Origin: an uncultured Planctomycetales bacterium
GTDB taxonomy: Bacteria; Planctomycetota; Phycisphaerae; SM23-33; FEN-1343
NCBI GenBank assembly: GCA_964535025.1
Contig: CAZHRW010000159.1
Location: 14,527-78,526, forward strand
Reading direction: 5' to 3'
Length of the DNA: 64,000 bases
Position 1 is the first letter of the stretch. Each line of letters starts with the position of its first letter. The position numbers were made by a program, and so were the translations under genes. Of this stretch, positions 2,384 through 51,598 are shown piece after piece. The notes beneath the pieces are model-generated. The model searched no databases. It worked only from the letters and a program-made list of their open reading frames with translations, and was not told the origin of the DNA.

Positions 2384-2648
2384 CCGGTCGCGGCCGCCGG
2401 GCGAAGAGGGCATCGCCGGTGCTCGGGTCAATCCCGCCAAACGAGGGGGGCGAAGTGGGCGAAGTACTGGAGCCGGCCGACCTTTGGTGCGCGGCAGGTT
2501 GTCGCTTTTACCCGTTTCCTCCTTGACAGACGCCCGCGACACCGCATAATGAGTGAGCGTTCATTCACTTTTGGACGAGCCAAGCCGCGAACCGGTCGCT
2601 GACGGTCGGCGGCGGCTTTTCGAGGCGGCACCCGGTGGAGTGCGGGCC

Positions 2649-3245
2649 ATGGCCAGACCGGCGGTCAAGAAGGATCGAATGGAGAGGGCGGCGATCGAGT
2701 TGTTCGCCACCCAGGGACTGGCGCGGACGACGGTCCGCGACATCGCCGCGGCGGCCGGGGTCGGCGAGGGGGCCTTGTACCGCCACTGGACCGGCAAGAA
2801 CGAGATGGCCTGGGCGCTCTATCGGCGGGAGGTCCACGCCTTCGCCGACGCCCTGCGGCCGTACCTGGAAGCGGCCGATGGACCCCTGGCCGATCGCGTG
2901 GCGGCGGCCGTGGCGTTCATCTACGGGGCCTACGACGTCGACCCGACCCGCCTGGCGTTCATCCTGTTTACCCAGCACGGCTTCCCGGCCGAGCACGTCC
3001 TCGACGATGCGTTCAATCCGTTCACGCTGGTGCTGGCGTTCTGCCGGCGGGAGATCCGCAGCGGGACGATCCCGCCGGCCGACGGGGAGGTCCTCGCGTC
3101 GCTGGTGATGGGGTCGGTCGTCCAGCCGCTGATCATGCACCGCTACGGGCGCGTCACGCGGCCGCCGCGGGCGATCGCCGCCGACGTGGCGGCGAGCATC
3201 ACGGCGCTGCTGCTAGCCGCGGCGGCGGGGGAGGCGACGGCATGA
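2649..3245 (+). CDS. TetR/AcrR family transcriptional regulator
   Basis: MARPAVKKDRMERAAIELFATQGLARTTVRDIAAAAGVGEGALYRHW is a TetR HTH. Start is at the internal ATG of track ORF 2553..3245. Its stop overlaps the next gene's ATG (ATGA). Confidence 0.8.
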   Translation: MARPAVKKDRMERAAIELFATQGLARTTVRDIAAAAGVGEGALYRHWTGKNEMAWALYRREVHAFADALRPYLEAADGPLADRVAAAVAFIYGAYDVDPTRLAFILFTQHGFPAEHVLDDAFNPFTLVLAFCRREIRSGTIPPADGEVLASLVMGSVVQPLIMHRYGRVTRPPRAIAADVAASITALLLAAAAGEATA

Positions 3246-3964
3246 GCGGCGCGAACGAATCCCGGCCGGGGGCGGCGGGACGGCTGGCGTGGCCGGTGGT
3301 GGGGGTGTTGTGCCTGCTGCCGGCGATCCAGACGGCGGCGGCCGTGTGGCTGGAAATCTACCCGGCGGTGACCTATCCGCTCATGAAGGTCGTGATGATC
3401 ATTCTCCCCCTGGCCATCTGGCGCGGCCGGCGCCTGGCGGTGCGGGATGTGGCCGCACGGATCGGCCTGGCACGGCCGCGGCTGCTGAGGGGCGTGGGGA
3501 TCGGCCTGGCGATGGCCGCGATCATCGTCGGCGGCTACGTTCTGCTCCTGCGCGGCCGCGTCGACGGGGCGGGGATCGCCCGCAAGACCACGTCGCTGGG
3601 GTTGCGGGAGTATTATTGGGCGATGGCCGTGGTCATTTCGCTGGCGAACGCCGCCTTCGAGGAATATTACTGGCGGGGGTTCCTGCTGAGCGAACTGCGG
3701 CCGTGGACCGGGTGGTCGTGGCGGCTGACCGTCCTGGCCGGGGCGCTGTTCGGGGTGCATCACGTTTTCGCCCTCGCGCCGCTGCTGGCCTGGCCGCTGG
3801 CGGCCGGGTGCACGGCGATCACGATGGTCGCCGGGGGCGTCTGGGCGTGGATGCGGGTGCGGGGGTGGTCGCTGGTGGATTGCTACCTCAGCCACGTTCT
3901 GGCGGACCTGGCGATCATGGGCGTCGGGTGGGATCTTTTGCAGCAGGCGGCGAGGGCCGGATGA
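3242..3964 (+). CDS. CPBP family intramembrane glutamic endopeptidase (CAAX protease/Abi-like)
   Basis: Multi-TM protein with EEYYWRGFLLSE (EExxxR), FGVHHVFA (FxxxH) and a distal H motif. Translationally coupled on both sides (ATGA overlaps at 3242 and 3961). Confidence 0.75.
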   Translation: MSGANESRPGAAGRLAWPVVGVLCLLPAIQTAAAVWLEIYPAVTYPLMKVVMIILPLAIWRGRRLAVRDVAARIGLARPRLLRGVGIGLAMAAIIVGGYVLLLRGRVDGAGIARKTTSLGLREYYWAMAVVISLANAAFEEYYWRGFLLSELRPWTGWSWRLTVLAGALFGVHHVFALAPLLAWPLAAGCTAITMVAGGVWAWMRVRGWSLVDCYLSHVLADLAIMGVGWDLLQQAARAG

Positions 3965-5274
3965 AGTACGACCAGGACACGCTCAATCAGATTCGTCGCG
4001 GCCGCAGCCGGTTCATCGCCATGGTGGTGACGTACGGGCTGGGCACGTTCAACGACAGTTTCTTCCGCCAGTCGGCCATGCTGCTGGCGGTCGCCGAAGG
4101 TCACGAGGCCATGCAGGGGTGGATCATGAGCCTGTTCGCCCTGCCGTACCTGCTGTTCGCCTCGCTGACCGGCTGGCTGGCGGACCGATTCTCCAAGAAG
4201 CGCGTCGTGATCGCCGCCAAGGCCCTGGAAGTGGTGGCGATGGTTCTGGGGGCCGTCGGGATCATCACGCTGAACTGGTGGTTCGTCCTGGCGATGGTGT
4301 TCATCATGGCGACCCAGTCGTGCCTGTTCAGCCCGGCCTTGAACGGGTCGATTCCCGAGCTGTACCCGGATGTGTACGTGACGCGGGCGAACGGGACGCT
4401 CAAGCTGGTCGTCACGGCCATGATCCTCGCCGGCGGCGCCGTCGCGGGGGTGGCGATGGGCTTCGAGGGCACCGGCTGGGGCGGCGTGCCGACCGAGCGG
4501 ATCGGCGTGGCGGTGGGGGTGGTGGCGATCTCGTTGTGCGGGCTGGCGATGAGCTTCGGCGTCGTGCGCCGGCCCGCGGCCGACCCCGACGCGCCGATAC
4601 CGCGACGGGGACCTGTCAGTACGATCCGCGAATTGATCGCCATTCGCCGCGATGCGCTGCTGGCGAAGGTGATCGCCACGAACGCGTTCACCTGGTTCGC
4701 CGGATCGTTGCTGATCCAGTTCATCAACCTGATGGCACAGAATGAATTCGGCTGGCCCAAGCAGGTCGCGGGGTACCTGGTGGCCGCCGAGTTGATCGGC
4801 CTGGCGGTGGGGGGGCTGGTGGTCAGTCGTCTGGGGGGCGGGCCGCGGTGGTACCGCGCGTTGGGGCCGTCCATACTGGCCATGGGCGGGCTGCTGGTGG
4901 TCATGGAGATGCTGCCGATGCTCCCCGACGGCGGGAGCGTGCTGTGGTCGTGGATGCCGTCGGCGCGGCGGCTGGCCGCGTACGGGCTGCTCGGTGCGAT
5001 CGGCGTGCTGGGCGGATCGGTCGTCATCCCCTGCGAGGCGTTCGTGCAGCGGCGCCCGCCGGCGGGGCGCAAGGGGACGGTTCTCGCCTCGGCCGGCTTC
5101 GCGGTGTTCGCGGGGATCCTGGTCTCCGGCCCGCTGGCGAACGTCCTGGCCGCACCCGGTGCGGGCGGACGATCGCTGGTCGCGCCCACCCGCGCGATGG
5201 CGCTGCTGGGGGTGGCGGCCCTGGCCGCCGGGGCGTTTTTCCGCCGCGCGTACGCGAAGGAGACCGAGGCATGA
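3961..5274 (+). CDS. MFS transporter, lysophospholipid transporter LplT-like
   Basis: In-frame ATG at 3961 inside track ORF 3289..5274; the upstream part of that ORF overlaps the CPBP gene out of frame. 12-TM MFS topology. Gene order MFS followed by an Aas-like acyltransferase mirrors lplT-aas. Confidence 0.7.
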   Translation: MKYDQDTLNQIRRGRSRFIAMVVTYGLGTFNDSFFRQSAMLLAVAEGHEAMQGWIMSLFALPYLLFASLTGWLADRFSKKRVVIAAKALEVVAMVLGAVGIITLNWWFVLAMVFIMATQSCLFSPALNGSIPELYPDVYVTRANGTLKLVVTAMILAGGAVAGVAMGFEGTGWGGVPTERIGVAVGVVAISLCGLAMSFGVVRRPAADPDAPIPRRGPVSTIRELIAIRRDALLAKVIATNAFTWFAGSLLIQFINLMAQNEFGWPKQVAGYLVAAELIGLAVGGLVVSRLGGGPRWYRALGPSILAMGGLLVVMEMLPMLPDGGSVLWSWMPSARRLAAYGLLGAIGVLGGSVVIPCEAFVQRRPPAGRKGTVLASAGFAVFAGILVSGPLANVLAAPGAGGRSLVAPTRAMALLGVAALAAGAFFRRAYAKETEA

Positions 5275-7913
5275 ATCGGCTGCTCACCTGGCTGGTCAAG
5301 GCGGTGCTGTGGCTGCGGTACCGCGTTCGCATCACCGGCGTCGACGAGGTCGCCCGGCGGGGGCGGTCGGGGATCCTCTTCCTGCCCAATCACCCGGCCC
5401 TGATCGACCCGATCATCCTGACGTCGCACCTGTACGGCCCGTTCGCCGTCCGCGCCCTGGCCGACCGGGGGCAGATCGACCGGTTTTTCATCCGGTGGCT
5501 GGCCCGACGGATCGGCGTGCTGCCGATCGAGGACGTCGCCACCGCCGGGCCCGACGCCGCCGACGCCGTCCGCCAGGCCGTCGACAAGGTGGTCGCGGGA
5601 CTGCGAGACGGCGACAATTTCATCCTCTACCCGGCCGGGCGGGCCTATCAGGGGTACCTCGAGGACCTCGGCGGAACCAGCGCCGTCGAGATGATCCTCC
5701 GCAAGTTGCCCGACGTCCGCGTCGTGCTCGTCCGCACCCGGGGCCTGTGGGGCAGCGCGTTCAGCCGCGCCTCCGGCACGGAGCCCGACGTCGCGACAAT
5801 CCTGCGCCGCGGTGTCGGCCGGCTGCTGCTTAACGGCATCGTCCTCGGCCCGCGCCGCCACGTGGAGATCACACTCGACGAGCCCGACGACCTGCCCCGC
5901 GGCGGCGATCGCCGGACCCTCAACCGCTACCTGGAAACGTTCTACAACGTCGGCGCCGAGCACAACACGTACGTCCCGTATACCTGGTGGGAGCGCGGCG
6001 GCGTGCGGACCGAGCCCGAACCCCGGCCGCCCGGCGTCCACGGCGACCTCGAGCGGGTCGGCGACGCCACCCGACGGCAGGTCGCCGACTACCTCCGCAC
6101 GCTCACCGGCCGCGACGAGCCGCTGTCGGACGACCTGCGGTTGGCGCACGACCTGGGGATGGACTCGCTGGCCCGCGCCGACCTGGTGATGTGGCTGGGG
6201 CGCGAGTTCGGCTACCCGCCGGGGGACGTCGACTCGCTGCGGACTGTGGGGGACGTGATGCTCGCGGCCGGCGGGCAGGCGCGGGGGGCGGTGGCCAGGC
6301 CGCTCAAGGCGGTGCCGGACCGGTGGTTTAACGACGGCGCCGAGCCGCGGCTGCTCGATGGGGTCGAAACCATGACCATCTGCGAGGCCTTCCTCGCCCA
6401 GGCCCGCCGCCGGCCGTCCGCCGTCGTCCTGGCCGACCAGACCAGTGGGGCGAAGACCTATCGCGATCTGGTGATGGGCATCCTGGCGCTCAGGCCCGCC
6501 ATCGAGGCGATCGACGGGACGCACGTGGCGATCATGCTGCCGGCCTCCGTCGCCGCCAACGTGGTCTACCTGGCGACGCTGTTCGCCGGCAAGACGCCCG
6601 TGATGGTCAACTGGACGACCGGGCGCAGGAACATCCTGCACGGCCTGGACGCCCTGGACGTTTCGGCGGTGCTGACGGCTCGGGAACTGGTCCACCGCTT
6701 AGGCGGCCAGGGCGTCGATCTCGGCGGCGCGGCCGAGCGGTTCGTCTACCTGGAGGACCTGCGGGCGTCGCTGACGACGAAGGCCAAGCTCGCCGCGTGG
6801 ATCGCCGCCCGCCTCGGCCTGCATCGCCTCGGCGCCGTCAGGCCGCCGGAGACCGCCGTGATCCTCTTCACCAGCGGGTCGGAGAACGTCCCCAAGATCG
6901 TCCCGCTGACCCACCGCAACATGCTGACCAACCTCGCCGACGCCTGGACCCGCTTCGCCCTCGGACCGACCGACAGCCTGCTGGGCATCCCCCCGCCGTT
7001 CCACTCGTTCGGATTAACGGCGACCATGCTCCTGTCGACCTGCACGGGACTGCGGGCGGCGTTTCATCCCAACCCGACCGAAGGGGCGGCGGTGGCCCGG
7101 TTGATCGACGCGTATGCCTGTTCGATCCTCGTGACCACGCCGACGTTCCTCAACGGGATGGTCCGCATGGCCGACGCCGACCAGTTGCTTTCGCTGCGGC
7201 TGGTCGTCTCGGGTGCCGAGGCCTGTCCGCCGCGGGTCTATGAGGCGATGGCCCGCCGGTGTCCGCAGGCGGTCGTGCTGGAAGGGTACGGCGTGACGGA
7301 GTGCTCGCCGATCATCTCGGTCAATCCCGAAGCCGATCCGCGGCCGGGGTCGATCGGCCCGGTCCTGCCGTCGATCGAGTACGCCATCACCGATCCCGAC
7401 ACGTTCGAGCGGGTCGAGGTCGGCCGGCGGGGCATGCTCCTGGTGCGGGGGCCCAGCGTGTTCGGAGGGTACCTCCAGCACGACGGGCCGTCGCCCTTTG
7501 TCGAGGCCGAGGGGCACACGTGGTATCGCACGGGCGACCTGGTCCGCGCCGATGAGGACGGCTGGCTGACGTTTGCCGGGCGGCTCAAGCGGTTCGCCAA
7601 GATCGGCGGGGAGATGATCTCCCTGCCGGCCATCGAGGCGGTGCTCACCGAGCGGTTCATTCGCGACGACGACGAGGGGCCCATCCTCGCCGTCGTCGCC
7701 GTGACGGCCGACGAGCGGCCGGAACTGGTGCTGGTGGCCGTGCGGGAGATCGATCGCGACGCCGCCAACGCCGCGATCCGCGAGGCGGGGCTGTCGGCCC
7801 TGCACAATATCCGGCGGGTCGAGCTGCTCGATGAGCTGCCCCTGCTGGGCACGGGCAAGACGGACTACCGGGCGCTCCAACGGCGACTCGCCGGCGAACA
7901 GAAGGACGCGTGA
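5271..7913 (+). CDS. three-domain Aas-like enzyme: PlsC-type lysophospholipid acyltransferase, then embedded acyl-carrier (phosphopantetheine-attachment) domain, then acyl-AMP ligase / acyl-ACP synthetase
   Basis: Start MNRLLTWLVKAV at 5271 (ATGA overlap with the MFS stop). NHPALIDPI = LPLAT HX4D motif. DLGMDSLARADLV = PP-binding DSL site. ILFTSGSENVPKIV, YGVTECSP and WYRTGDLV are AMP-binding motifs. Confidence 0.8.
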   Translation: MNRLLTWLVKAVLWLRYRVRITGVDEVARRGRSGILFLPNHPALIDPIILTSHLYGPFAVRALADRGQIDRFFIRWLARRIGVLPIEDVATAGPDAADAVRQAVDKVVAGLRDGDNFILYPAGRAYQGYLEDLGGTSAVEMILRKLPDVRVVLVRTRGLWGSAFSRASGTEPDVATILRRGVGRLLLNGIVLGPRRHVEITLDEPDDLPRGGDRRTLNRYLETFYNVGAEHNTYVPYTWWERGGVRTEPEPRPPGVHGDLERVGDATRRQVADYLRTLTGRDEPLSDDLRLAHDLGMDSLARADLVMWLGREFGYPPGDVDSLRTVGDVMLAAGGQARGAVARPLKAVPDRWFNDGAEPRLLDGVETMTICEAFLAQARRRPSAVVLADQTSGAKTYRDLVMGILALRPAIEAIDGTHVAIMLPASVAANVVYLATLFAGKTPVMVNWTTGRRNILHGLDALDVSAVLTARELVHRLGGQGVDLGGAAERFVYLEDLRASLTTKAKLAAWIAARLGLHRLGAVRPPETAVILFTSGSENVPKIVPLTHRNMLTNLADAWTRFALGPTDSLLGIPPPFHSFGLTATMLLSTCTGLRAAFHPNPTEGAAVARLIDAYACSILVTTPTFLNGMVRMADADQLLSLRLVVSGAEACPPRVYEAMARRCPQAVVLEGYGVTECSPIISVNPEADPRPGSIGPVLPSIEYAITDPDTFERVEVGRRGMLLVRGPSVFGGYLQHDGPSPFVEAEGHTWYRTGDLVRADEDGWLTFAGRLKRFAKIGGEMISLPAIEAVLTERFIRDDDEGPILAVVAVTADERPELVLVAVREIDRDAANAAIREAGLSALHNIRRVELLDELPLLGTGKTDYRALQRRLAGEQKDA

Positions 7914-8890
7914 GCATGCGAGAGGTGCTGATGCTGGGGATGCTGACCGGGATGACGCTGGCCGGCGGGTGCGGGGGCGTGCGGGACTTCTACGCCCGCA
8001 GCCTGGTCGTGCACACGCGCCTGCCGGGCCGCCTCCAATTGGCGCTGCAGCCGCCGGACGCGGTGCTGCTGCGTCGGGGGCGGATCGACCAGGCCCGCCG
8101 GATCGCCACGAGCGACGGGGTGTGCATCGACCTGTGGGTGATCAATGCCCGACCGGCGGCGGGGGACCGCCCGCGGGGCACGGTGGTGGCACTGCACGGG
8201 TTGGCGATGTCGCGGGTGGAGATGCTGGCCACCGCCCAACGCCTGGCCGATCGGGGCTTCGACGTCGTTCTACCCGACCACCGCGCGCACGGCCGCTCGA
8301 CGGGGCGGTACACGACCTTCGGGGCCAAGGAGGCCCGCGACGTCCGGGAGGTCCTCGACGTACTCCGGGCCGAGGGGGCCGTGGCGTTGCCCACCTATGC
8401 GGTGGGCGTGTCCATGGGCGGCGCGACGGCCGTGCTGTACGCCGCCGACGATCCCGACTGCCGGGGCGTCGTCGCCCTGGCCCCGCCGGCCGACACCCGC
8501 GCGATCCTCCGACGGCTGCTGGTCGTCTACGCCCCGTGGATGGTGGGTCGCCGGGCCGACGCCGTCGTCGATCGCGCCGGGGCGCTGGCCGATTTCGACG
8601 TCGACGCCACCAGCGCCGCCGACGCCGCTCGACGCCTGACGTGCCCGCTCCTGGTCGTGCACGGCACGTTCGACGCCATCGTGCCGACCTGGCACGGCCG
8701 CCGGGTCTACGCCGCGACCGCCGGGCCGAAACGCCTTGAATGCATCCGGGGCCTCGGTCACGCCCTCATCATGACCGGCCGTGCCGACTGGATCGCCGAC
8801 CAGGTCGACGCCATGGCCGCCGGCCGCTTCGTCGCCAAAGGCACCTGGGCGAGCGATAGGGAGACGCGAGATGAAAAAGTTAGCGGATGA
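7910..8890 (+). CDS. alpha/beta hydrolase (lipoprotein signal, lysophospholipase/esterase-like)
   Basis: LTGMTLAGGCGG lipobox; GVSMGGATA = GxSxG nucleophile elbow. GTGA/ATG start is coupled to the Aas-like stop. Confidence 0.7.
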   Translation: MSMREVLMLGMLTGMTLAGGCGGVRDFYARSLVVHTRLPGRLQLALQPPDAVLLRRGRIDQARRIATSDGVCIDLWVINARPAAGDRPRGTVVALHGLAMSRVEMLATAQRLADRGFDVVLPDHRAHGRSTGRYTTFGAKEARDVREVLDVLRAEGAVALPTYAVGVSMGGATAVLYAADDPDCRGVVALAPPADTRAILRRLLVVYAPWMVGRRADAVVDRAGALADFDVDATSAADAARRLTCPLLVVHGTFDAIVPTWHGRRVYAATAGPKRLECIRGLGHALIMTGRADWIADQVDAMAAGRFVAKGTWASDRETRDEKVSG

Positions 8891-9779
8891 TGCCCTCGAC
8901 GAGTCCCATTCCGCCGCGCCGTCCGTCAGCAAGCCAAAGAAGCCGCTGTGGCGGCGGCTGGTCGTGAGCGTCCTGCGCATCGTCATCGCGGCCTACGTCG
9001 GCCTGGCGCTGGTGCTGACGTCGTGTCAGTCGCGGATTGTCTATCAACCGTCGGAGACCATGGACGCGACGCCCGATGAGGCGGCGATGGAGTACGAAGA
9101 CGTCCGCTTCACCGCCGACGACGGGGTTCGCCTCCACGCGTGGTATATCCCGGCTGAGGGGGCCCGAGGCACGGTACTGGTCTGTCACGGCAATGCCGGC
9201 AATATCTCCGGCCGCCTGGCGACCGCGGCGCTGTTCCAGCGGCTGGGGCTGTCGGTGCTGCTGTTCGACTACCGTGGCTACGGGCTCAGCGAGGGCAAGC
9301 CGAGCGAGGAGGGCACTTACCTCGACGCGGCCGCCGCGTGGCGGTACCTTACCGAGGAGCGGGGGATCGACCCGGCCGGGATCGTGGTCTTCGGCCGTTC
9401 GCTGGGCTCGGCGATCGCGACCCGCCAGGCGGCCGCGGCGCCGCCGGCGGCGCTGATCGTCGAGTCGGCGTTCACCTCGGTCCCGGACGTCGCCAGGCAT
9501 TATTACCGCTTCCTGCCGGTCGGGTGGCTGTGCCGGTTCGACTACGCGACGGAAGCGACCATCGGCCGGGTGCGCTGCCCGGTCCTGGTCATCCACAGCC
9601 GCGACGACGAGATCATCCCCTTCGCCATGGGGCGGCGGGTGTTCGAGGCCGCGGGCGAGCCCAAACGCTTCCTGGCCATCGGCGGCGGACACAACGACGG
9701 CTTCCTCGTCAGCCAGGGCGATTATCTGCGCGAGATCGATTCGGTGCTCGACGAGGTCCTCGGCAAGGACGGGACCTGA
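8871..9779 (+). CDS. alpha/beta hydrolase with N-terminal membrane anchor
   Basis: Start MKKLADD at 8871, preceded by GGAGACG. TM segment LVVSVLRIVIAAYVGLALVL. CHGNAGN and GRSLGSAIA (GxSxG) motifs. Confidence 0.7.
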   Translation: MKKLADDALDESHSAAPSVSKPKKPLWRRLVVSVLRIVIAAYVGLALVLTSCQSRIVYQPSETMDATPDEAAMEYEDVRFTADDGVRLHAWYIPAEGARGTVLVCHGNAGNISGRLATAALFQRLGLSVLLFDYRGYGLSEGKPSEEGTYLDAAAAWRYLTEERGIDPAGIVVFGRSLGSAIATRQAAAAPPAALIVESAFTSVPDVARHYYRFLPVGWLCRFDYATEATIGRVRCPVLVIHSRDDEIIPFAMGRRVFEAAGEPKRFLAIGGGHNDGFLVSQGDYLREIDSVLDEVLGKDGT

Positions 9780-9911
9780 TCGGGGGTGCGAAACAATCCG
9801 GACGATAGGGGGCTGACGGGCGCCGGGGGATGTGATACAATGCCGGTGTCTTGCATTCTTTGTGAACAGGTGGGCCCGACGCGCATTCGCTGAATAGGAG
9901 ACAGACGCGTA

Positions 9912-12900
9912 ATGGAACGTTCGGCAACTCAGCCCCACGGTGGGCATCTCGGCGGTTGTCCGCTTCCCGGTTTCGAGACCCTCGAGCCGCGATTGATGCT
10001 GGCCGGCGACGTGGTGATCTCGGAGTTCATGGCCATCAACGATGGGACGCTGGCCGACGTGGACGGGGATTACAGCGACTGGATCGAACTGCACAACCGC
10101 GGCGACGACGCCGTCGACCTCGACGGGTGGTTTCTCACCGACGATCCGGCCGACCTGACCAAGTGGCGGATCCCCGCGATCACGCTGGCCGCCGGGGAGA
10201 TCGAGGTGATCTTCGCCTCCGACAAGGATCGCGACGACCCGGACGGTGAACTGCACACGGGCTTCAAGCTCAGCGGTTCGGGCGAGTACCTGGCGCTGGT
10301 GATGCCCGACGGGACCTCCATCGCCCACGCCTACGCGCCGACGGTCCAGTACGCCGACGTCTCCTACGGGCTCGACCTGGACGGCAACCCCGCCTACTTC
10401 GACCCGGCCACGCCCGGGGTGCCCAACGCCGGGGACGTGGAACTGCTGCCGGACGTCGAGTTCTCCGTCCAGCACGGCGTCTTCGACGCGCCGTTCACAC
10501 TGACGCTGAGCAGTTCGGTCCAGGATGCGACCATTTACTACACGCTGGACGGCACGGATCCCTACGGGGCGATCGACGCCGTCGAATACACCGGCCCGAT
10601 CGTCATCGACGCGACCACCGTCGTGCGGGCCTATGCCGAGACCTGGGACGCCGAATCCGCGGTGACCACGCAGACCTACATCTCCCTCGCATCGGTCCTG
10701 ACCCAGGGCGACGACCAGACCGCCATCGGCTTCCCCGACATCTGGCACGCCGGGGCCGGCGGCAGCGGCATCTACGACAGCGAATACCGCGACGCCGATT
10801 ACGAGATGGACCCGGACATCATCAACGACCCGGTCTGGGGGCCGCTGCTGACCGAGGCGCTCACCCAGATTCCGTCCATGGCGCTGACGCTGGACCCGTA
10901 CGACTTGTGGGACCCGGAAGACGGCATCTACCCCAACTCGATCCAGCGCGCCAGCCGCGACGACAAGTGGGAAAAGCCCTCGTCGCTGGAGTTGTTTTAC
11001 CCCGACGGCAGCACCGAGGAAGGCTTCACCGTCAACGCCGGCGCCCGCATGTTCGGCGAACTGGCCCGATGGGCCGCGGTCAACGACAAGCAGAGCTTCC
11101 GGATGGTGTTCCAGGGCGAGTACGGCCCGACGAAGCTGGTGACCGACTTCTTCGGCGACTCCGACGTCGACGAGTACGACACCATCGTCATGCGGGCCCA
11201 CTGGGGCAAGTCCTGGCTGCTGGACGAGGCCCTCGGCGACCGGCTGGGGGTTTCCTGGCTGAATTCCGATCCGTCGTCGGCCCAGTACCTCCGCGACCTC
11301 TACGCCCTGACCACCTTCGCCGATACCGGCAACCTCAGCTCCGACGGGCGCATGGTCCACCTGTACCTCAATGGCCTGTACTGGGGCCTTTACGAGGTCA
11401 TCGAACGGCCGGACAACTCCTTCAACGCCGAGCACCGTGGCGGGGACAAGGACGACTACAGCGTCATGAAGGGCGCCGCCGGCACATTCGCCTACCGCGG
11501 CGAGAACACGTATAACATTGGTGTGCACATGCCCTACTACATGTCCAACGGCCGCCTCCAGGACGGTAGCCGCGACATGTGGGACTGGCTCTTCCATACG
11601 TATTTCGATGCCCACGAGGACGGCATCAACATGCTCGAGCGGGACAATGTCACCCCGGTCCGCGGCACGATTAGTGATGAGGAACTGGCCGAGATCGCCC
11701 AATACGTCGACCTCGACAACCTCATCGACTACATGATCACGCTGTGGACGCTCAACCGCGGGGACTTCCCCGGCAAGAACTGGTACGCCGCCTGGGAAGG
11801 CGGCGCCGCCGACACGCCGCCCGACAAGCCGATCCAGTTCTACGTGTGGGACTCCGAAGCGTCCCTGGCCGGTACGGAGATCACGCATTGGACTCCGCCG
11901 GCCGAGCGATGGAACAGCCCCAGCAAGGGTAATGACACCGGCCCGGTCCGCATGTACTGGCGGCTGATCACCAACCAGGGCTTCCGCATCCGCTGGATGG
12001 AACGGGCCCGGGATCTGCTGGGCGACGGCGGGCCCCTCTCGGATGAGGCCTCCATGCAGCGCTACGCGGAGATGGCCTCGCAGATCGACATGGCCGTCAT
12101 CGCCGAATCCGCCCGCTGGGGCGACTCGGCGACGCTGCACATCAACGACCCGATGACCAAGGACGACTGGCAGGCCGAGTACGACCGCCTCATGGCCGAG
12201 TGGTTCCCCGGCCGCGCCGAGATGGTCCTGGCCGAGATGGGGGCGGCGGGGCTGGACGATGCGCCGACGGCGCCCGAGATCGACGTCCCCGGTGGTCTGG
12301 TTCAGCCCGGCACAATGGTGATGCTGAGCACGGTCGGCGACGGCGAGGTATGGTACACGCTCGACGGCACCGACCCCATGGACGGCGTCGGGATGCCGAT
12401 GCCGATGAGCGACCCGCGGCTGCAATGGGCCTTCAACGATACCGGAACCGATCTGGGCACCGCCTGGCGGGAAATCGACTACGACGATTCGACCTGGGGT
12501 ACGGGCACCGGCCGTCTCGGCTATGGCACCGGCGACGAGGATACCGCCATCGGCTTCGGCGACGATTCGCTCGACAAGCACATCACCACCTACTTCCGTG
12601 CCAACATCATCCTGGACGAAGTGCCGGACGATACGGTGACGCTCTACGTCCGCCGCGACGACGGCGTGGCGATCTACGTCAACGGCCATCGCATCGCCGA
12701 GCCGCACGACAATCTGCCCGCCGGCGAGATCACCTACGACACGCTGGCCAGCTCGTCGGTGGCCTTCGGGGCCGAAAACCAGTGGCACACATACGAAGTG
12801 GACCCGTCGCTGTTCGTCGAGGACCACAACGTGATCGCCGCGGAGGTCCACAAGTACAGCCCGCGCGGCTGGGACCTGACCTTCGAGATGACCACCGACC

Positions 12901-14918
12901 TGCCGTTGCAGAGCATCTCGGCCGTCCCCGTCGAACTGTTTACCGACACCCACCTGGTCGTCCGCACGATGCGCGACGGCAAGTGGAGCTACAAAACCGA
13001 GGCCGTCTACATCGTCGACGAGGCCCCGCCCCTGGCGATCACGGAGGTCAACTACAACCCGGCGGCCGCGATGGCGGCCGAATACCAGGCGGGCGCGACG
13101 GACGCCCAGGACTTCGAGTTCATCGAGGTCCACAACCCCACCGGCAATCCGATCCGCCAGATCGGCGCGACCCTGAGCGAGGGCATCACCGCGACGCTGC
13201 CATTGTTCGAACTCGAACCCGGCGAGTACGGCGTATTCGTCCGCGACCGCGAGGCCTTCCAATTGCGGTACGGCACCGACGTGAAGATCCTCGGCGAGTA
13301 CACTCGCCACCTGGGCAACGGGGGCGACCGGATCGTGCTGACCAGCTCCAACGGGGCGGTCCTGGCCGACTTCACCTATGACGACGCCGCCAACTGGCCC
13401 GGCCGCGCCGACGGCCGCGGCGCCACGCTGGAGGTCATCGACACCCAGGGCGACTACAACAGCGACGACACCTGGCGCTCGTCGACCGAGTATCTCGGCA
13501 CCCCCGGCGCCGCCGGGATCGGGCCCGTCGACTCGGTGATCATCAACGAAGTGGTCACCAATCCCGACGGCGGCTCCGACGCGATTGAACTGCACAACCC
13601 CACCGGCGAGGCGATCGACATCGGCGGCTGGTACCTCAGCGACACCGCCGACGAGTACACCCGCTACCGCATCGGCGACGATACGGTCATCCCGGCCGGC
13701 GGATACCTGGTCTTGACGGACGCCGAGCTGGGATTCGGCCTCAGCCGCTTCGGCGAGGACGTCTGGCTCATGGCCGCCGACGGCGACGGGGCCCTGACCC
13801 GGTTCGTCGACCACGTCGAATTCGGCGCGGCCCTGGAGGGGATGCCCTTCGGACGCTATCGGGGCCAGGACGCCGACGGCGATTTCACCGCCCTGGCGAG
13901 CATTACACTCGGCGGGCCCAACGCCGGGCCGTTCCCCAGCGACGTGATCCTCAGCGAAGTCCACTACCATCCCGGCGACCTGGCCGGATCGACTGAGGCC
14001 GACCTGGAGTTCCTCGAGCTGTACAACCGCAGCGATCACCCCGTCCCGCTCGACTGGTACGACGCCAACGGCAACGGCGTCCGCGACGCCGGCGAGCAGG
14101 GCGCCTGGCGGCTGGCCGGCGCCGTCGAGTTCGCCTTCCCGGCCGGCACGACGATCGACCCCGGCGGCACGCTGGTCGTTGTGGGCGCCGCGTCGGTCGA
14201 GGCGTTCCGGACGGCCTACGGGATCGATGAGAGCGTAGCCGTTTTGGGCGCCTGGGACGGCCGGCTGGCCAACGGCCGCGAGCGGATCGACCTGTGCCTG
14301 CCGGCGCCTCTGCGCACCGGGGACACCGAGACGGCCTACGTCGTGGCCGACTGGGTCGACTACAAGGACCACCTGCCCTGGCCCGTCTCGGCTGACGGCG
14401 CCGGCGATTCACTCCACCGCATGCGCGCCTGGGCGTACGGCAACGACGTCACGAACTGGTTCGCCGCCGAGCCCAACCCCGGGCAGGCGGCCCTGACGCC
14501 GGAGGCCCTGGAAGGCGATCTGAACCACGACCTCCAGGTCGACGGCGTCGACATCGGCCTGATCAACCGGGCTGTCCGCGAGGGGGCGACCGATCTGCGG
14601 TTCGACCTGGACGGCGACGGGGACGTCGACGGCGCCGACGTGGACTACCTGCTCCAGGGGATCCTCGGCACGCACGCCGGGGACTTCAACCTCGATGGGT
14701 ACGTCGACCTCGACGACTTCGACGCGCTCAAGACCGGCTTCGGCAAGCCCGCCGGCTGGTCCGGCGGCGACGCCAACGGCGACGGGAGGGTCGACCTGGA
14801 GGACTTCGCCATCCTCAAGAAAAACTACGGCGCCCAGCCGGTCCAGCAGGCCGATCCGGACAACCTGCTGGCGCCCCTGGACGTCCTGGCCGAAGTCGCC
14901 GCCGGCCCCCTTGGGTAG
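9912..14918 (+). CDS. giant secreted CotH kinase-like protein with four lamin-tail domains (LTD) and C-terminal dockerin repeats
   Basis: 1668 aa. LTD signatures VVISEFMAINDG...DWIELHN, ITEVNYNP...FIEVHNPTGNPI, VIINEVVTNPDG...IELHNPTGEAI, VILSEVHYHP...LELYNRSDHPV. CotH core MVHLYLNGLYWGLYEVIERPDNSF. C-terminal DLDGDGDVDGADVDYLL, GDFNLDGYVDLDDFDALK and GDANGDGRVDLEDFAILK dockerin repeats. N-terminal motif ETLEPRLMLAGD. Confidence 0.75.
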   Translation: MERSATQPHGGHLGGCPLPGFETLEPRLMLAGDVVISEFMAINDGTLADVDGDYSDWIELHNRGDDAVDLDGWFLTDDPADLTKWRIPAITLAAGEIEVIFASDKDRDDPDGELHTGFKLSGSGEYLALVMPDGTSIAHAYAPTVQYADVSYGLDLDGNPAYFDPATPGVPNAGDVELLPDVEFSVQHGVFDAPFTLTLSSSVQDATIYYTLDGTDPYGAIDAVEYTGPIVIDATTVVRAYAETWDAESAVTTQTYISLASVLTQGDDQTAIGFPDIWHAGAGGSGIYDSEYRDADYEMDPDIINDPVWGPLLTEALTQIPSMALTLDPYDLWDPEDGIYPNSIQRASRDDKWEKPSSLELFYPDGSTEEGFTVNAGARMFGELARWAAVNDKQSFRMVFQGEYGPTKLVTDFFGDSDVDEYDTIVMRAHWGKSWLLDEALGDRLGVSWLNSDPSSAQYLRDLYALTTFADTGNLSSDGRMVHLYLNGLYWGLYEVIERPDNSFNAEHRGGDKDDYSVMKGAAGTFAYRGENTYNIGVHMPYYMSNGRLQDGSRDMWDWLFHTYFDAHEDGINMLERDNVTPVRGTISDEELAEIAQYVDLDNLIDYMITLWTLNRGDFPGKNWYAAWEGGAADTPPDKPIQFYVWDSEASLAGTEITHWTPPAERWNSPSKGNDTGPVRMYWRLITNQGFRIRWMERARDLLGDGGPLSDEASMQRYAEMASQIDMAVIAESARWGDSATLHINDPMTKDDWQAEYDRLMAEWFPGRAEMVLAEMGAAGLDDAPTAPEIDVPGGLVQPGTMVMLSTVGDGEVWYTLDGTDPMDGVGMPMPMSDPRLQWAFNDTGTDLGTAWREIDYDDSTWGTGTGRLGYGTGDEDTAIGFGDDSLDKHITTYFRANIILDEVPDDTVTLYVRRDDGVAIYVNGHRIAEPHDNLPAGEITYDTLASSSVAFGAENQWHTYEVDPSLFVEDHNVIAAEVHKYSPRGWDLTFEMTTDLPLQSISAVPVELFTDTHLVVRTMRDGKWSYKTEAVYIVDEAPPLAITEVNYNPAAAMAAEYQAGATDAQDFEFIEVHNPTGNPIRQIGATLSEGITATLPLFELEPGEYGVFVRDREAFQLRYGTDVKILGEYTRHLGNGGDRIVLTSSNGAVLADFTYDDAANWPGRADGRGATLEVIDTQGDYNSDDTWRSSTEYLGTPGAAGIGPVDSVIINEVVTNPDGGSDAIELHNPTGEAIDIGGWYLSDTADEYTRYRIGDDTVIPAGGYLVLTDAELGFGLSRFGEDVWLMAADGDGALTRFVDHVEFGAALEGMPFGRYRGQDADGDFTALASITLGGPNAGPFPSDVILSEVHYHPGDLAGSTEADLEFLELYNRSDHPVPLDWYDANGNGVRDAGEQGAWRLAGAVEFAFPAGTTIDPGGTLVVVGAASVEAFRTAYGIDESVAVLGAWDGRLANGRERIDLCLPAPLRTGDTETAYVVADWVDYKDHLPWPVSADGAGDSLHRMRAWAYGNDVTNWFAAEPNPGQAALTPEALEGDLNHDLQVDGVDIGLINRAVREGATDLRFDLDGDGDVDGADVDYLLQGILGTHAGDFNLDGYVDLDDFDALKTGFGKPAGWSGGDANGDGRVDLEDFAILKKNYGAQPVQQADPDNLLAPLDVLAEVAAGPLG

Positions 14919-14939
14919 GGGGGCGTAACTGGACGGGTG

Positions 14940-15118
14940 GACTGGAGCCCCCAAAACCCGAAATCCGAAGCACGAAATCCGAAACAAACCTCAAAACGGA
15001 TAAGACGGCAAACGGCAAAACGGCCAAGCCCCGTTGTTTGGTGCTTTTCCGTTTTGCCGTTTCGAATTTGTTTCGAGTTTCGAGTTTCGAGCTTCGGATT
15101 TCGGATTTCCGGCGCGTC
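14940..15118. repeat. REP/MITE-like palindromic intergenic element, copy A (nested inverted repeats between convergent CotH gene and leuA)
   Basis: Outer arms CCCGAAATCCGAAGCACGAAATCCGAAACAAACC (about 14957..14990) and GAATTTGTTTCGAGTTTCGAGTTTCGAGCTTCGGATTTCGGATTTCCGG (about 15064..15112) are reverse complements. Inner hairpin CGGCAAAACGG...CCGTTTTGCCG. Shares modules with the element at 51436..51598. Confidence 0.5.
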
Positions 15119-15123
15119 AGCGC

Positions 15124-16665
15124 CTACGGATGGGCCGGCCGTTCCTTGCCGTTCTGGACGGTCAGGGCGCGGTTGACCGCGGCGAGGTAGGCCAGGCCGG
15201 AGGCCTCGACCACGTCGGTGTGGACCCCTCGGCCGCGGAATCTGCGGCCCTCGTGGATCACCTCGACGCTGACCTCGCCCTGGGCGTCGGTGCCGCCGGT
15301 CAGGGCGCGGAGCTGGTAGTCGCTTAGCGTCACCGATGCGCCGGTGATCCGCTGAATGGCCGAGTAGACCGCGTCGACGGGCCCGTCGCCGGTGGCGGCA
15401 TCGGTATGGTCCTCGTTGTCGCGGCTCAGGGTGACGGTGGCGGTCGGGGTGGTGCTGTCGCCGGCGATGGTCTGCAGGCCCTTGAGCGACCATACCTGGA
15501 TCGCCGTCTCCGTTTGCGCGTCGATGATCGCCTCGATGTCCTCGTCGTAGACGTTCTTCTTCTTGTCGGCCAGGGCGATGAACTGCTCGAAGGCGGCGTC
15601 CATGTCCTCGTCGGTGAGCGCGTAGCCCAGCGTCGCGACGCGGTCGCGGAAGGCGTGGCGGCCGGAGGGCTTGCCGAGGACGAGCTTGTTGGAGGGGATC
15701 CCGACGTCCTCCGGTCGCATGATCTCGTAGGTCTCGCGGTGCGCCATGACGCCGTGCTGGTGGATGCCCGCTTCGTGGGCGAAGGCGTTCTCGCCGACGA
15801 CGGCCTTGTTGCGCTGGACCATCAGCCCCGTGATGCTCGTGAGCAGACGGCTGGTGGGGTAGATCCGCTGGGTGGCGATCCGTGTCTCGGCGTCGAAGAC
15901 ATCCCCGCGGGTTCGCAGGGCCATGACAACCTCCTCGAGGGAGGCGTTGCCGGCCCGCTCGCCGATGCCGTTGACGGTGCACTCGACCTGCCCGGCCCCG
16001 GCGGCGACCGCCGCGAGACTGTTGGCCACGGCCAGGCCCAGGTCGTCATGACAATGGACGCTGATGACGGCCTTGTCGATATTGGGGACGTTCTCGCGGA
16101 TGTTGGCGATCAGGGCGCCGAACTGGTCGGGGATGGCGTAGCCGACCGTGTCGGGGATGTTCACCGTCGTCGCGCCGGCGGCGATGACCGCTTCCAGGAC
16201 GTCGTTGAGGAAGTCCCACTCGGTCCGCGAGGCGTCCTCGGGGCTGAACTCGACGTCGTCGGTGAACGTCCGGGCCAGGCGGACCGACTCGACGCTCATG
16301 TCGATGATCTGCTCCTTCTTCTTGCGGAGCTTATGGTTGCGGTGGATCTCGCTGGTGGCGCAGAACACGTGGATCCGCCGTTTCGACGCCGGGGCGAGCG
16401 CGTCGGCGGCGGTGACGATATCCTTCTCCAGCGACCGCGCCAGCCCGCAGATGATCGGCCCGGCGACGGCCTCGCTGATGGCGCGGACCGCCTGGAAGTC
16501 GCCGGGGGAAGCGACGGGGAAGCCCGCTTCGATGACATCCACGTTCAGCTTGGCCAGCGCGTGGGCCAACTGGAGCTTCTCATTGAGGTTCATGCTCGCG
16601 CCGGGGCTCTGTTCGCCGTCGCGGAGCGTGGTGTCGAAGATCGTGATGATGCGTTTCTCGGCCAT
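15124..16665 (-). CDS. leuA: 2-isopropylmalate synthase
   Basis: [25 protein letters not shown]... HxH metal site [15 protein letters not shown]; C-terminal LeuA regulatory domain. Start chosen at the internal ATG (16665). The track ORF extends to 16809 through an arginine-rich non-LeuA extension that overlaps the terminator hairpin. Confidence 0.85.
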
Positions 16666-20769: not shown

Positions 20770-20859
20770 GGAGAGGTGGCCGAGAGGCTGAAGGCACCGG
20801 TTTGCTAAACCGGCGTACGGTTTAAGGCCGTACCGCGGGTTCGAATCCCGCCCTCTCCG
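20770..20859 (+). tRNA. tRNA-Ser (anticodon GCU)
   Basis: GGAGAGGTGGCCGAGAGGCTGAAGGCACCGGTTTGCTAAACCGG + long variable arm + GCGGGTTCGAATCCCGCCCTCTCCG. 90 nt class II cloverleaf. CCA not encoded. Confidence 0.85.
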
Positions 20860-20999
20860 TGAAATGAGGAAGCTCGATTCTCCCTGGAGGGTCGGGCTTC
20901 TTCCGTATCAAGATCCCGACGGCGGGATTCGAACACGCCCCGCCGCGCCGCGGCGGCACGCAGGGCTCGATAGTCGCCGTTCACGTCTCCGCGGTTCGT

Positions 21000-21707
21000 T
21001 CAGTCGGCCCGATCTTCATTGTCCTGGAGAACTTCCAGCTCGATCAGCGCGGCCTTAGCGGCGAGTTGCTCGGCTTGCTTCTTGTTGTTGGCCCAGGCGC
21101 TGGTGAAGCGATGGCCGTTGCAGACGACGCAGATCTCGAAGGCCTTATCGTGGTCGGGGCCCTTTTCGTCGAGCAGTTCGTAGACGGGCGTGGTGTTCCA
21201 CGTCTGCTGGAGATGCTGCTGGAGGATGCTCTTGAAGTTGCGGGCGTGCTCGTTGGCGATCACCCGGTCGATCTGGTCGGCCATGTGCTCGAGGATGAAC
21301 CGCCGCGCGGGCTCCAGCCCGCCGTCGAGGTACACCGCACCGACGACGCTCTCCAGCACCGCCGCGCTGAGGCTGGACGGCAGCGAGCGGCGGGGGCCGA
21401 AGCCCTTGCCGACGTGCAGGCACGTGTCGAGGCCGATCTTCCGTGCCACCCGCCCGCAGACCTGGCGGGAGACCACCGCCGATTTGATCTTGGTCAACTC
21501 CCCCTCGAGGAACTCCGGGTGGGCGAGGTAGAGCGCCTCGCAGATCACCAGCCCCAGCACGACGTCGCCGAGGAATTCGAGGCGCTCGTTGGACTGCAGT
21601 CGCGACGGGGCGATCGACGAGTGCGTCAGCGCCATCCGCAGCAGGTCCAGGTCGGAAAACCGGTACTCAAGGATCTCCTGGCAACGGTCGAGTTGCTCCT
21701 GCATCAT
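21000..21707 (-). CDS. rnc: ribonuclease III
   Basis: ERLEFLGDVVLGLVICEALY RNase III signature plus C-terminal dsRBD. Start at the tandem ATG ATG (MMQEQLDRCQEILEYRF). Confidence 0.9.
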   Translation of the reverse strand: MMQEQLDRCQEILEYRFSDLDLLRMALTHSSIAPSRLQSNERLEFLGDVVLGLVICEALYLAHPEFLEGELTKIKSAVVSRQVCGRVARKIGLDTCLHVGKGFGPRRSLPSSLSAAVLESVVGAVYLDGGLEPARRFILEHMADQIDRVIANEHARNFKSILQQHLQQTWNTTPVYELLDEKGPDHDKAFEICVVCNGHRFTSAWANNKKQAEQLAAKAALIELEVLQDNEDRAD

Positions 21708-22104
21708 CGCGGCCCTCGCGGCGAAGGCCCATGGCGAGAGCCGCCTGTGGCCGCCGCGGCCGCATGGCAAGTCTCGTCAGGGGTCTTTGCATGCGCCAAA
21801 GACTCAGAGGCCCTCTACGATAGCGTCGCCGCCGGCGCTTGTCAATCCGGGCTCCGGGCAGGTTACCGCGGGGCCGCTGATGGAGTGGGCGAAGGAGATG
21901 CCGTCTTTTCGGGGGGGGTGCCGCGGGTGGGGTAAGGAATGACAAGGGGTTACAATTTCGGAGTTGCAATACCGAGATAGCTTGGGTGGGCGGAGGAATT
22001 GGTGGGCGCGCCGCCACATCGGGGTGGGGCGGCCCTATGATTGGGGTGGAAGCCGTCCGCTACTCCCCCCGCACCGGCGGGCCGGGCTGAGAGGAGTGAC
22101 CAGC

Positions 22105-51419: not shown

Positions 51420-51435
51420 CGCGGCCAGTATAACG

Positions 51436-51598
51436 CCCGGCCCTGCGGGCCGGGAAATTCGAAATACGAAACCAATCCGAAACGGCAAAACAGCACAGCT
51501 CGAAACGCCAAGGCGTCCGCCCAAGTCGTGTCGGGCTTTATCCGTTTGCCGTATTGGGAGTTGTTTCGTATTTCGAGTTTCGTGCTTCGGATTTCCGC
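51436..51598. repeat. REP/MITE-like palindromic intergenic element, copy B (between the FAH-family gene and the ABC-F gene)
   Basis: Right arm CGGAAATCCGAAGCACGAAACTCGAAATACGAAACAA (reverse complement of 51560..51597) matches the left arm of copy A almost base for base. Shares the ACGGCAAAAC/CCGTTTGCCG inner module. Contains hairpin CCCGGCCC-TGC-GGGCCGGG at 51436..51454. Confidence 0.5.

Follow-up and report, generated by a model that had tools for sequence, protein, structure and literature searches.

Two AT-rich, long imperfect hairpins of ~150–165 bp, with arms built from tandem heptamers of the form CGAAAYN, lie in the 64-kb stretch of DNA analyzed here (64,000 nucleotides of contig CAZHRW010000159.1 from an uncultured Planctomycetales bacterium, hereafter the window). 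On balance, we favor the interpretation that these hairpins, copies A and B, are partly decayed members, lacking an open reading frame (ORF), of a class of foldback elements with heptamer arms that resembles the intervening sequences (IVSs) of 23S rRNA genes, and that they are probably cut by RNase III when transcribed. We regard them as relics of mobile elements at transcript boundaries and not as novel RNA genes. A preliminary description of the window had recognized the repeat; the connection to IVSs and to the protein family PF05635 was absent from it.

Copy A (14950..15112, no strand assigned; delineated by arm search, folds, Tandem Repeats Finder (TRF), and an arm hidden Markov model (HMM)) fills the spacer between a CotH-like gene and the convergent leuA. 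It begins 31 nt past the stop of the former (14918, + strand) and ends 11 nt before the stop of the latter (15124, − strand). Its outer inverted arms (14942–14985 / 15077–15120) are 80% complementary over 44 nt and enclose an inner hairpin (15010–15032 / 15040–15062) with 87% complementarity over 23 nt. The 5′ outer arm (14950..14985, + strand) comprises about five heptamers (CCAAAAC, CCGAAAT, CCGAAGC, ACGAAAT, CCGAAAC), holds the 18-mer GAAATCCGAAGCACGAAA that recurs across phyla, and matches the arm HMM with E = 4.9e-08. In the inner arms and apex (14992..15062), CAAAACGG-type units build a CGGCAAAACGG...CCGTTTTGCCG hairpin; the ACGGCAAA motif of these inner arms is a clade-specific flavor that is also present in copy B and at loci L135 and L138. 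The 3′ outer arm (15059..15112, + strand) was resolved by TRF and by a scan for self-similarity at a lag of 7 nt into 3.9 units of GTTTCGA followed by 2.4 of TTCGGAT. It has six units versus four to five in the 5′ arm and matches the arm HMM on the − strand with E = 2e-11. TRF assigned period 7 to 14950–14985, 15070–15096 (95% matches), and 15093–15109, and period 8 (CAAAACGG) to 14992–15024.

Copy B (51450..51598, no strand assigned; arm search, folds, arm HMM) begins 1 base after the stop of a fumarylacetoacetate-hydrolase (FAA-hydrolase) gene and its other end lies 30 nt from the start of an ABC-F ATPase gene. Its inverted arms (51454–51481 / 51554–51581) are 86% complementary over 28 nt. 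The arm that carries the conserved seed (51554..51598, − strand) reads GGAAATCCGAAGCACGAAACTCGAAATACGAAAC on that strand and matches the arm HMM with E = 1.6e-07; its partner GGAAATTCGAAATACGAAACCAATCCGAAAC (51453..51483, + strand) is shorter and more decayed, shows 12-mer matches, and stays under the HMM threshold.

Both copies stand out from a window of 68.9% GC, the hairpins having ~46% (the lowest 100-nt stretch of copy A has 46%). Their stems are AT-rich and ~50–60 bp long. Computed folds of the two strands reach −91.3 and −98.6 kcal/mol for copy A (z-scores of −8.1 and −8.6 versus shuffled sequences) and −83.5 and −81.7 kcal/mol for copy B (z-scores of −7.1 and −6.1). Arms start with GGAAATCC or CCGAAATCC. 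Allowing at most one mismatch, CGAAATNCGAAA has 10 matches in the window, all within the two copies, where 0.34 would be expected. Neither the arm HMM nor the lag-7 scan found a third copy in the 64 kb, nor is there another clean period-7 array. Searching the window against Rfam at the gathering threshold, and the two copies permissively, returned only far sub-threshold matches to microRNA precursors, as any long hairpin gives. With terminal inverted repeats, a length below ~500 bp, and no ORF, the copies have the build of a miniature inverted-repeat transposable element (MITE). They also share two features with IVSs, namely complementary termini that form a long stem around a variable loop, and tandem heptamers in the arm (TRF period 7).

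The preliminary description had presented copy A as a complex nested palindromic element composed of CGAAAT/CGAAAC repeats, with a second copy of near-identical arm sequence about 36 kb away at 51436..51598. The outer arms and inner hairpin are indeed present, and the second copy is our copy B. The heptamer build holds as well, although the unit is better written CGAAAYN. The near-identity does not: the aligned elements are 69% identical and have one 18-mer, GAAATCCGAAGCACGAAA, in common, and the 35-nt core that had been proposed as a search query occurs exactly in copy B only, in its seed-bearing arm, copy A giving no match at up to three mismatches.

Arms of this type extend far beyond the window. 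We scanned one genome per species with the seed pattern GAAATCCGAAGCNCGAAA, an 18-nt arm pattern with 17 specified bases, and obtained matches at at least 119 genome loci from ~99 assemblies (counted by accession prefix) and in 12 viral contigs; by our own arithmetic, chance would yield a few tens of matches across the entire collection. The seed pairs with a downstream partner arm in 98 of the 133 matches, mostly at a spacing of 120–150 nt. An alignment of 58 elements, in which copy A is aligned over its full length with 57 members from other phyla, reveals a common architecture far past the seed: an outer arm AAATCCGAAATCCGAAGCACGAAATCCGA, a junction AACAAAT, and an inner arm TCAAATGACCAAAATTCAAATGTTCAAAAC are followed by a variable loop of 5–60 nt and then by the reverse complement of all three. 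The consensus from both arms retains at least 60% identity well beyond the seed. According to record titles, the hosts of verified hairpins belong to at least nine phyla. Among the Planctomycetota they include Phycisphaerae, Tepidisphaerales, Pirellulales, Planctomycetaceae, and Gemmataceae, and among the Patescibacteria Saccharibacteria, Staskawiczbacteria, Nomurabacteria, and others; further hosts are Verrucomicrobiota, Desulfobacterota/Thermodesulfobacteriota, Omnitrophota, Armatimonadota, Hydrogenedentota, Bacteroidota, and Pseudomonadota. The GC content of the loci ranges from 35 to 71%. Copies within one genome have a common inner-arm flavor, as in the Tepidisphaeraceae loci L043 and L045 or, with ACGGCAAA(A)CGG, in the window and its relatives. 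A literature search by sequence retrieved unrelated primers only, and in the incomplete body of literature that was searched we found no paper describing the CGAAAYN family or linking the Coxiella IVS, the Xanthomonas inverted pairs, and the STRR-type and TAACTGA heptamers (see below) with one another.

Complete CGAAAYN hairpins are also present on five IMG/VR contigs classed as viral (L121, L123, L124, L127, and L131). At three loci (L005, 5930–6000; L020, 800–840; L074, 5690–5850), unrelated palindromic repeats such as CCCTGTGGAAT...ATTCCACAGGG and CCCCCTTGATCCCC...GGGGGAG are nested in CGAAAYN loops, into which other hairpin elements may insert preferentially.

Four members of the family lie within a single 23S rRNA gene (Rfam large-subunit (LSU) model, 1318 bits) of a Saccharibacteria metagenome-assembled genome (MAG; locus L022). 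Insertions of 179 and 211 nt replace short loops at LSU model positions ~165 and ~285, and a third starts at ~583; in the stretch of the alignment that was inspected, these three insertions coincide with three of the elements, at helix tips. The fourth element (6186–6357) is likewise in the 23S rRNA gene, the model position having been read for the other three only. Since a conserved rRNA gene provides the clearest possible empty site, the copies in L022 are insertions. Insertion at the tip of a 23S helix, which is typical of IVSs, is found in these members and not in the window copies, which are intergenic. A survey of rRNA genes from the candidate phyla radiation (CPR) reported many short insertions (<200 bp) at known IVS sites, which have no ORF or intron features and were left uncharacterized (PMC11270868). 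At least some of these belong to the CGAAAYN family.

Each rRNA-borne element of L022 is bracketed by two small hairpins (3560–3790, 3870–4120, 4420–4630, and 6150–6390), for example CATCACAC-AGA-GTGTGATG and CACATCGTGC...GCGCGATGTG. Across the four sites, these small hairpins vary in sequence but retain their pairing, suggestive of a four-way junction formed with the host helix. Directly past the end of the Rfam 23S match is a LAGLIDADG-type ORF (6567–7193, with a GFVDGEGCF motif), the position of which implies an intron in the rRNA gene that bears the four hairpin insertions.

The family PF05635 comprises the four-helix-bundle “23S rRNA intervening-sequence protein” (S23p); this protein is pentameric and a relative of Avd, the accessory protein of diversity-generating retroelements. 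In a Patescibacteria member of the CGAAAYN family (L059), the 366-nt loop encodes a PF05635 protein (Pfam E = 6.6e-13). The window contains no PF05635 ORF, the loops of copies A and B included. In its closest relative, L132, a PF05635 gene lies between the genes for RNase III and a tRNA, flanked by inverted (GAGGCKT)n arrays, and the inner motif of this cassette, AACGGCAAC, resembles the window elements. In L132, the heptamer array itself (GAGGCTT, GAGACGG, GAGGCTT, GA; within 1237–1596) supplies the final codons of the gene (..RGLRREA*), so that the downstream arm begins within the ORF. At another locus, L093, the PF05635 gene is preceded by (GTTCCTA)×3. Homologues of the L132 protein are 65–82% identical among the matches listed, with sources including Planctomycetota, Actinobacteria, Zixibacteria, and Hydrogenedentes.

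This association was quantified in 80 metagenome loci encoding relatives. Of 77 upstream flanks, 13 showed tandem self-similarity at a lag of 7 nt, as did 9 of 74 downstream ones, versus zero or one for lags of 5, 6, 8, 9, and 10. An inverted repeat between the two 150-nt flanks was detected for 58 of 76 PF05635 genes and for 1 of 33 neighboring ORFs (Fisher p = 1e-13). At the best-scoring loci, the arms usually end 2–60 nt before the start codon and begin again 0–20 nt after the stop codon, and nearly all top-scoring flank pairs are arrays, including (GGAGTCT)n, (GGAGGCT)n, (GTAGGCT)n, and (AGGTGCA)n. On plasmids of cultured bacteria, the gene occurs mostly in Nostoc, Calothrix, Trichormus, and Anabaena, and inverted arrays flank it in five of the six plasmid-borne cases inspected. 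The units are (GGGTGTA)n in Calothrix, (GGGAGTR)n in Nostoc edaphicum, (GGGAARA)n in Geminocystis, and (GGACRGA)n in Azospirillum, and an octamer in Gemmatirosa.

On plasmid gamma of Nostoc sp. PCC 7120 (L220; NC_003267.1, 14694–15832), a (CTTCTGC/CCTCTGC)n array lies downstream of the gene with no matching array upstream; there, an ISL3 transposase gene immediately precedes the PF05635 gene and may be what disrupted the cassette. Most of the PF05635 homologues among the matches listed (P0241–P0360) are on contigs of a few kilobases or less, consistent with assemblies being interrupted at the heptamer arrays on either side of the gene.

The spacer between RNase III and the tRNA illustrates how a cassette might be reduced to a bare hairpin. 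In L132, it reads arm, PF05635 gene, arm, loop, arm; in L133, only the last hairpin (arm, loop, arm) is present, with no ORF; and in the window, a 17-nt remnant of a GC-rich heptamer cassette arm, GAGACGTGAACGGCGAC (20973..20989, − strand), occupies the spacer beside the RNase III gene (21000..21770, − strand; ERLEFLGD motif), which is syntenic with those of L132 and L133 (Pfam on the orthologues). The arrays on either side of the L132 gene constitute direct repeats, and precisely the L133 form would remain after a deletion between them. Cassettes in L144, L151, L156, and L214 are also accompanied by ORF-less hairpins of matching heptamer flavor. A fragment resembling the T-arm and acceptor stem of a tRNA (GGGGCGTGTTCGAATCCCGCC; window 20900–20960, − strand, and L133 1300–1370) lies between RNase III and the tRNA (20770–20859) and is duplicated in L133; its appearance is that of a scar left by integration at the tRNA.

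We compared the sites of the two copies with those in related genomes. The arrangement at site A, with leuA facing the CotH gene, is conserved in L132–L135 (LeuA identities of 91, 88, 82, and 80%), and none of these four relatives has heptamers there, so that copy A represents a presence/absence polymorphism at an orthologous site. The spacer measures 85–159 nt in L132, L133, and L135, and ~730 nt with two small called ORFs in L134; half an element is found upstream of leuA in L135. All four relatives possess a compact GC-rich hairpin adjoining the CotH stop, e.g. CGGCCCCCGCCG...CGGCGGGGGCCG followed by TGCTGTTG, and those of L132, L133, and L135 fold with z-scores from −4.7 to −5.8. Parsimony favors a single gain in the lineage of the window over four losses. 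By comparison with L132 and L133, the small GC hairpin GGCGCGTCAGCGCC (15113..15126), which abuts copy A and overlaps the leuA stop codon, and the GGGGGC at 14945–14950 may be the leftover of an ancestral GC-rich terminator stem.

At site B, the spacers of the relatives (85 and 84% identity) are 120–127 nt long and contain element fragments only (..ACGGCAAACGAAGC.., ..TTCGCATTTCGG..), and copy B therefore predates the split and has decayed in the relatives. They also keep a conserved GC hairpin and a GCGTTATACTG box. The corresponding hairpin in the window, CCCGGCCC-TGC-GGGCCGGG (51436..51454), could be aligned with L138 and L139; because its position is kept in these two relatives, it probably serves as resident terminator for the upstream gene.

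Across the family, gene context was assigned to 55 elements, of which 43 lie between co-directional, 9 between convergent, and 3 between divergent genes. Typically, the element starts 3–50 nt past a stop codon and the next gene begins 15–70 nt beyond it. The order of the arms is constant, an A-rich array preceding a T-rich one whichever strand is read, and some loci have three to five elements per 8 kb, with nearly every spacer occupied. The seed arm is oriented with the gene strand in 23 cases and opposite to it in 20. A host GC hairpin underlying the element is clear only in a subset (L118, L123, L110, and L022). Two possible generalizations were rejected: small flanking hairpins are not a family feature (flank folds of −6.3 versus −8.0 kcal/mol in controls), and insertion into the loop of a host hairpin gave too weak a signal to be a general rule (4.3 versus 3.2 cross-flank pairs).

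A scenario in which these elements are selfish would connect the above. The class would consist of very widespread foldback elements with inverted arms of 7-nt arrays around a variable center, whose full-length relatives would carry the PF05635 gene in the loop, which is the classical architecture of 23S IVSs. Deletion between the direct heptamer arrays flanking the gene would be the probable source of forms without an ORF, and elements would persist where a self-contained hairpin is harmless: past stop codons, at the positions of terminator hairpins, and at the tips of rRNA helices. Upon transcription, the arms would form a duplex of ~50–60 bp, which by analogy with IVSs may be cut by RNase III, and the RNase III encoded in the window would be the host enzyme expected to cut such long hairpins. 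The 3′ ends of leuA and CotH transcripts would then be defined by cutting within copy A, and the FAA-hydrolase and ABC-F cistrons would be uncoupled by cutting within copy B. Whereas the anatomy, the family across phyla, the rRNA insertions, the association of PF05635 with heptamer arms, and the presence/absence pattern in relatives are demonstrated directly, the descent of the window copies from PF05635 cassettes, like RNase III cutting and any host benefit, is inferred.

Several observations weigh against this interpretation. L059 is the only CGAAAYN-type element with a PF05635 gene, the other cassettes using different heptamers, and the CGAAAYN arm HMM found no matches in the 80 PF05635 loci; the common ancestry of the heptamer flavors is therefore deduced from architecture and not from sequence. 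To our knowledge, PF05635 is not a recombinase, and no mobility enzyme was found. Neither the aligned ends nor the rRNA insertions nor site A displayed a consistent target-site duplication or a clean junction, element boundaries being blurred by the variable number of units. At site A, GGGGGC remains in the window at one edge and CGCGCCGG at the opposite edge, with ~30 nt lost; because the junctions are unclean in this way, the event looks like a replacement with deletion at a terminator hairpin and not like a simple insertion. In the sense orientation, G-U and A-C mismatches are balanced (140 versus 128, p = 0.5), so that there is no sign of selection on an RNA hairpin from one strand; on this basis and that of the 23 versus 20 orientations, a strand-specific RNA function was rejected. 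The 43, 9, and 3 gene contexts were derived with a crude, home-made, composition-based gene caller, and a seed search favors conserved arms, by which the uniformity of the family is overstated. The least secure points among all these are the shared ancestry of the flavors, with its one linking element, the lack of a known mobility enzyme, and the RNase III step, which is put forward by analogy.

Tentatively, and with clearly less confidence than we place in the interpretation of the window copies, the PF05635 genes and inverted heptamer arrays might be taken as a single, previously unrecognized class of mobile cassette across bacteria. It would unite classical 23S IVSs, many cyanobacterial arrays of the short tandemly repeated repetitive (STRR) type, the GGGAATC pairs of Xanthomonas, and the CGAAAYN hairpins. 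The pentameric PF05635 protein would recognize its own arms in steps of 7 nt and promote spread or maintenance of the cassette, and the ORF-less hairpins would be non-autonomous derivatives.

An ordinary MITE, derived by deletion from an insertion sequence with long terminal inverted repeats and mobilized in trans by a DDE-type transposase from elsewhere in the genome, would account for the small size, the terminal inverted arms, the lack of an ORF, the occurrence of several copies in either orientation (23 versus 20), the presence/absence polymorphism at site A, and the conserved arm ends around a variable interior. It would, however, be expected to leave target-site duplications, and none is visible. 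A search for autonomous copies found no arm pair enclosing a transposase or a kilobase-scale loop (the largest loops measure 235–366 nt), and the only pair around a gene, that of L059, holds PF05635. All-against-all clustering of 676 ORFs near 131 loci yielded no recurrent protein family, apart from one small, generic cluster of eight loci. Arrays with a variable number of units are also unlike the fixed ends to which transposases bind, and near-identical ends in at least nine phyla would demand an unusually promiscuous and undescribed insertion sequence; we find this explanation unlikely. A repetitive extragenic palindromic (REP) element or hairpin-forming REP doublet (REPIN) moved by a REP-associated tyrosine transposase (RAYT) or the TnpA of IS200/IS605, appears highly improbable. 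An intergenic palindromic hairpin of ~100–160 nt past stop codons and in multiple copies in some genomes is what such an element looks like, but the hairpins have neither a GTAG/CGTC head nor a discrete REP unit of 20–40 nt, no Y1 transposase was found among the 10 small ORFs of the window (64 kb of genome) or as a recurrent neighbor, and REP sequences are species-specific whereas the CGAAAYN arms are common to at least nine phyla. The REP/MITE-like label of the preliminary description is thus apt in the broad sense of a non-coding, palindromic, intergenic element, and not as kinship to REP/RAYT or IS200/IS605 systems. Its assertion that the element belongs to a dispersed repeat family and is not a one-off terminator is borne out by the many loci, assemblies, and phyla above. 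It had counted only two copies genome-wide, unconserved in position among strains, as evidence against such a family; the position of copy A is indeed not conserved, which argues for gain or mobility and not against a repeat family, and the family reaches far beyond this genome.

The hairpins could instead be host-evolved bidirectional terminators or mRNA-stabilizing 3′ hairpins, immobile and grown in place by slippage of A- and T-rich flanks. Their location directly past stop codons, the strong GC hairpin that four relatives possess at the convergent site of copy A, the rarity of members between divergent genes (3 of 55), and the different unit numbers of the two arms, as would result from slippage, all speak for this. 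Growth in place cannot, on the other hand, yield the same 30–50-nt arm across phyla in loci of 35 to 71% GC, and it does not explain four copies inside a 23S rRNA gene. Of the traits of an intrinsic terminator, the copies have the position after the stops of convergent or tandem genes and lack the short GC-rich stem with its U-tract. A scan for canonical terminators found one site in copy A versus 0.7 expected and none in copy B versus 0.4, a scan for canonical promoters found nothing above chance, and the wobble pairs show no strand asymmetry. We therefore regard such an origin as quite unlikely, and of the bidirectional terminator proposed in the preliminary description there remain the terminator position and the relatives' GC hairpin at site A. 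The arrays might also be primarily binding sites for a protein that recognizes steps of 7 nt, such as pentameric PF05635 or cold-shock proteins, with a regulatory or nucleoid role that is not selfish. The strict period, with lag 7 alone enriched, and the location of PF05635 genes between heptamer arrays would agree with a reader of this kind, and CspB binds one protein per heptamer (PMC4679880). Given that the window has no PF05635 gene and that the unit sequence varies widely among cassettes, which argues against one conserved reader, this seems very unlikely to be their primary nature.

Several known systems come close to these elements. The IVS of Coxiella comprises 428 nt in helix 45, with a 28-bp terminal stem, an S23p ORF, and GACAGAT heptamers whose number varies among strains; RNase III cuts in the stem, and a mobile origin has only been proposed (PMC4990558). 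Like the 23S IVSs of Salmonella, Leptospira, and Coxiella, the CGAAAYN elements have complementary termini forming a stem, a variable loop, an optional PF05635 gene in that loop, a sporadic, horizontal-looking distribution, and members at 23S helix tips, and the variable heptamers of Coxiella have their counterpart here. Unlike those IVSs, the window copies are intergenic and without an ORF, and the CGAAAYN arms are much longer arrays (~50–60 nt) with one sequence common across phyla. Xanthomonas contains ~185 GGGAATC arrays, 70–75 of them as convergent inverted pairs, which lie in intergenic DNA near stop codons and often contain the start or end of a transcript (Rehm et al. 2015, PMC4692102). 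That study took them to be G-quadruplex formers and drew no connection to S23p, IVSs, or a cross-phylum family (PMC4692102). The GGGAATC and GGGGAYT pairs of Xanthomonas and Nostoc resemble our elements in being convergent inverted heptamers in intergenic regions, at most 50 nt from stop codons, with variable unit numbers, and in lying between aligned ORFs and rarely between divergent ones, but their units are G-rich. A G-quadruplex reading of the CGAAAYN arrays was rejected because the units lack G-tracts (at least four units with a G-tract of three or more are absent).

Other families of small repeats resemble the CGAAAYN elements less closely. A REP is defined as an imperfect palindromic unit of 20–40 nt with a conserved GTAG or CGTC head (PMC3733652). 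REPs and REPINs are likewise non-coding, palindromic, intergenic hairpin repeats that follow genes in multiple copies; the CGAAAYN elements differ in lacking this head and any RAYT that we could find, and in having heptamer-array arms that are common across phyla and not species-specific. The Correia elements of Neisseria and the enterobacterial repetitive intergenic consensus (ERIC) sequences are small, ORF-less inverted-repeat elements in spacers that would also fold as RNA hairpins, and Correia RNA is reportedly cut by RNase III; these have fixed ends, TA target duplications, and a genus-level distribution, in contrast to the CGAAAYN elements. Eukaryotic Foldback (FB) transposons, which are often non-coding, have long inverted arms composed of short tandem units in variable number; being eukaryotic and unrelated in sequence, they provide an architectural analogy only. 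The cyanobacterial STRRs and the TAACTGA heptamers of Beggiatoaceae are direct arrays that have spread across phyla by no known transfer mechanism (PMC4679880). They share with our elements the 7-nt tandem unit, the intergenic location, and the puzzling cross-phylum distribution, but are direct arrays usually upstream of start codons and not paired inverted arms.

The origin and mobility of 23S IVSs have been open questions since 1990; the role of S23p and the over-representation of heptamers among long tandem repeats of bacteria are two more (PMC4990558, PMC4692102). These questions are joined by the finding that PF05635 genes lie between inverted repeats, for the most part heptamer arrays, in about three-quarters of the cases examined, and by ORF-less hairpins of the same build in intergenic spacers and at rRNA helix tips, one flavor of which, CGAAAYN, has nearly the same arms from Patescibacteria to Planctomycetota. 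If our interpretation is true, it would define a large class of selfish elements, explain many short unclassified insertions in CPR rRNA genes, and flag heptamer arrays as a common cause of broken metagenome assemblies.

Copy A is bordered by the gene for a CotH/LTD protein of 1668 amino acids (9912–14918, + strand) and by leuA (15124–16665, − strand), whose ORF extends to 16809, the relatives' protein having 513 amino acids. Copy B is bordered by the FAA-hydrolase gene (51600–52529, − strand) and the ABC-F ATPase gene (49488–51419, − strand). Upstream of the ABC-F start, a GCGTTATACTGG / GCGTTATACTG box with a −10-like TATACT (51425..51436, − strand) is nearly identical at ~5025–5040 in L138 and ~5033–5048 in L139, the spacer being otherwise diverged in the three genomes; it probably represents the −10 region of the ABC-F gene promoter. 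No transposase was identified among the 10 small ORFs of the window, which match TetR, NikR, HisF-like, B12-binding, and similar proteins. The closest named relatives of the window are Planctomycetota MAGs, followed by Phycisphaerae. Elsewhere in the window, a ~240-bp island (1661–1901) with 34% GC versus 69% for the window, and without an Rfam match at the gathering threshold, is located between a − strand gene (5′ side at ~1690) and a TetR-family gene (2553, + strand).

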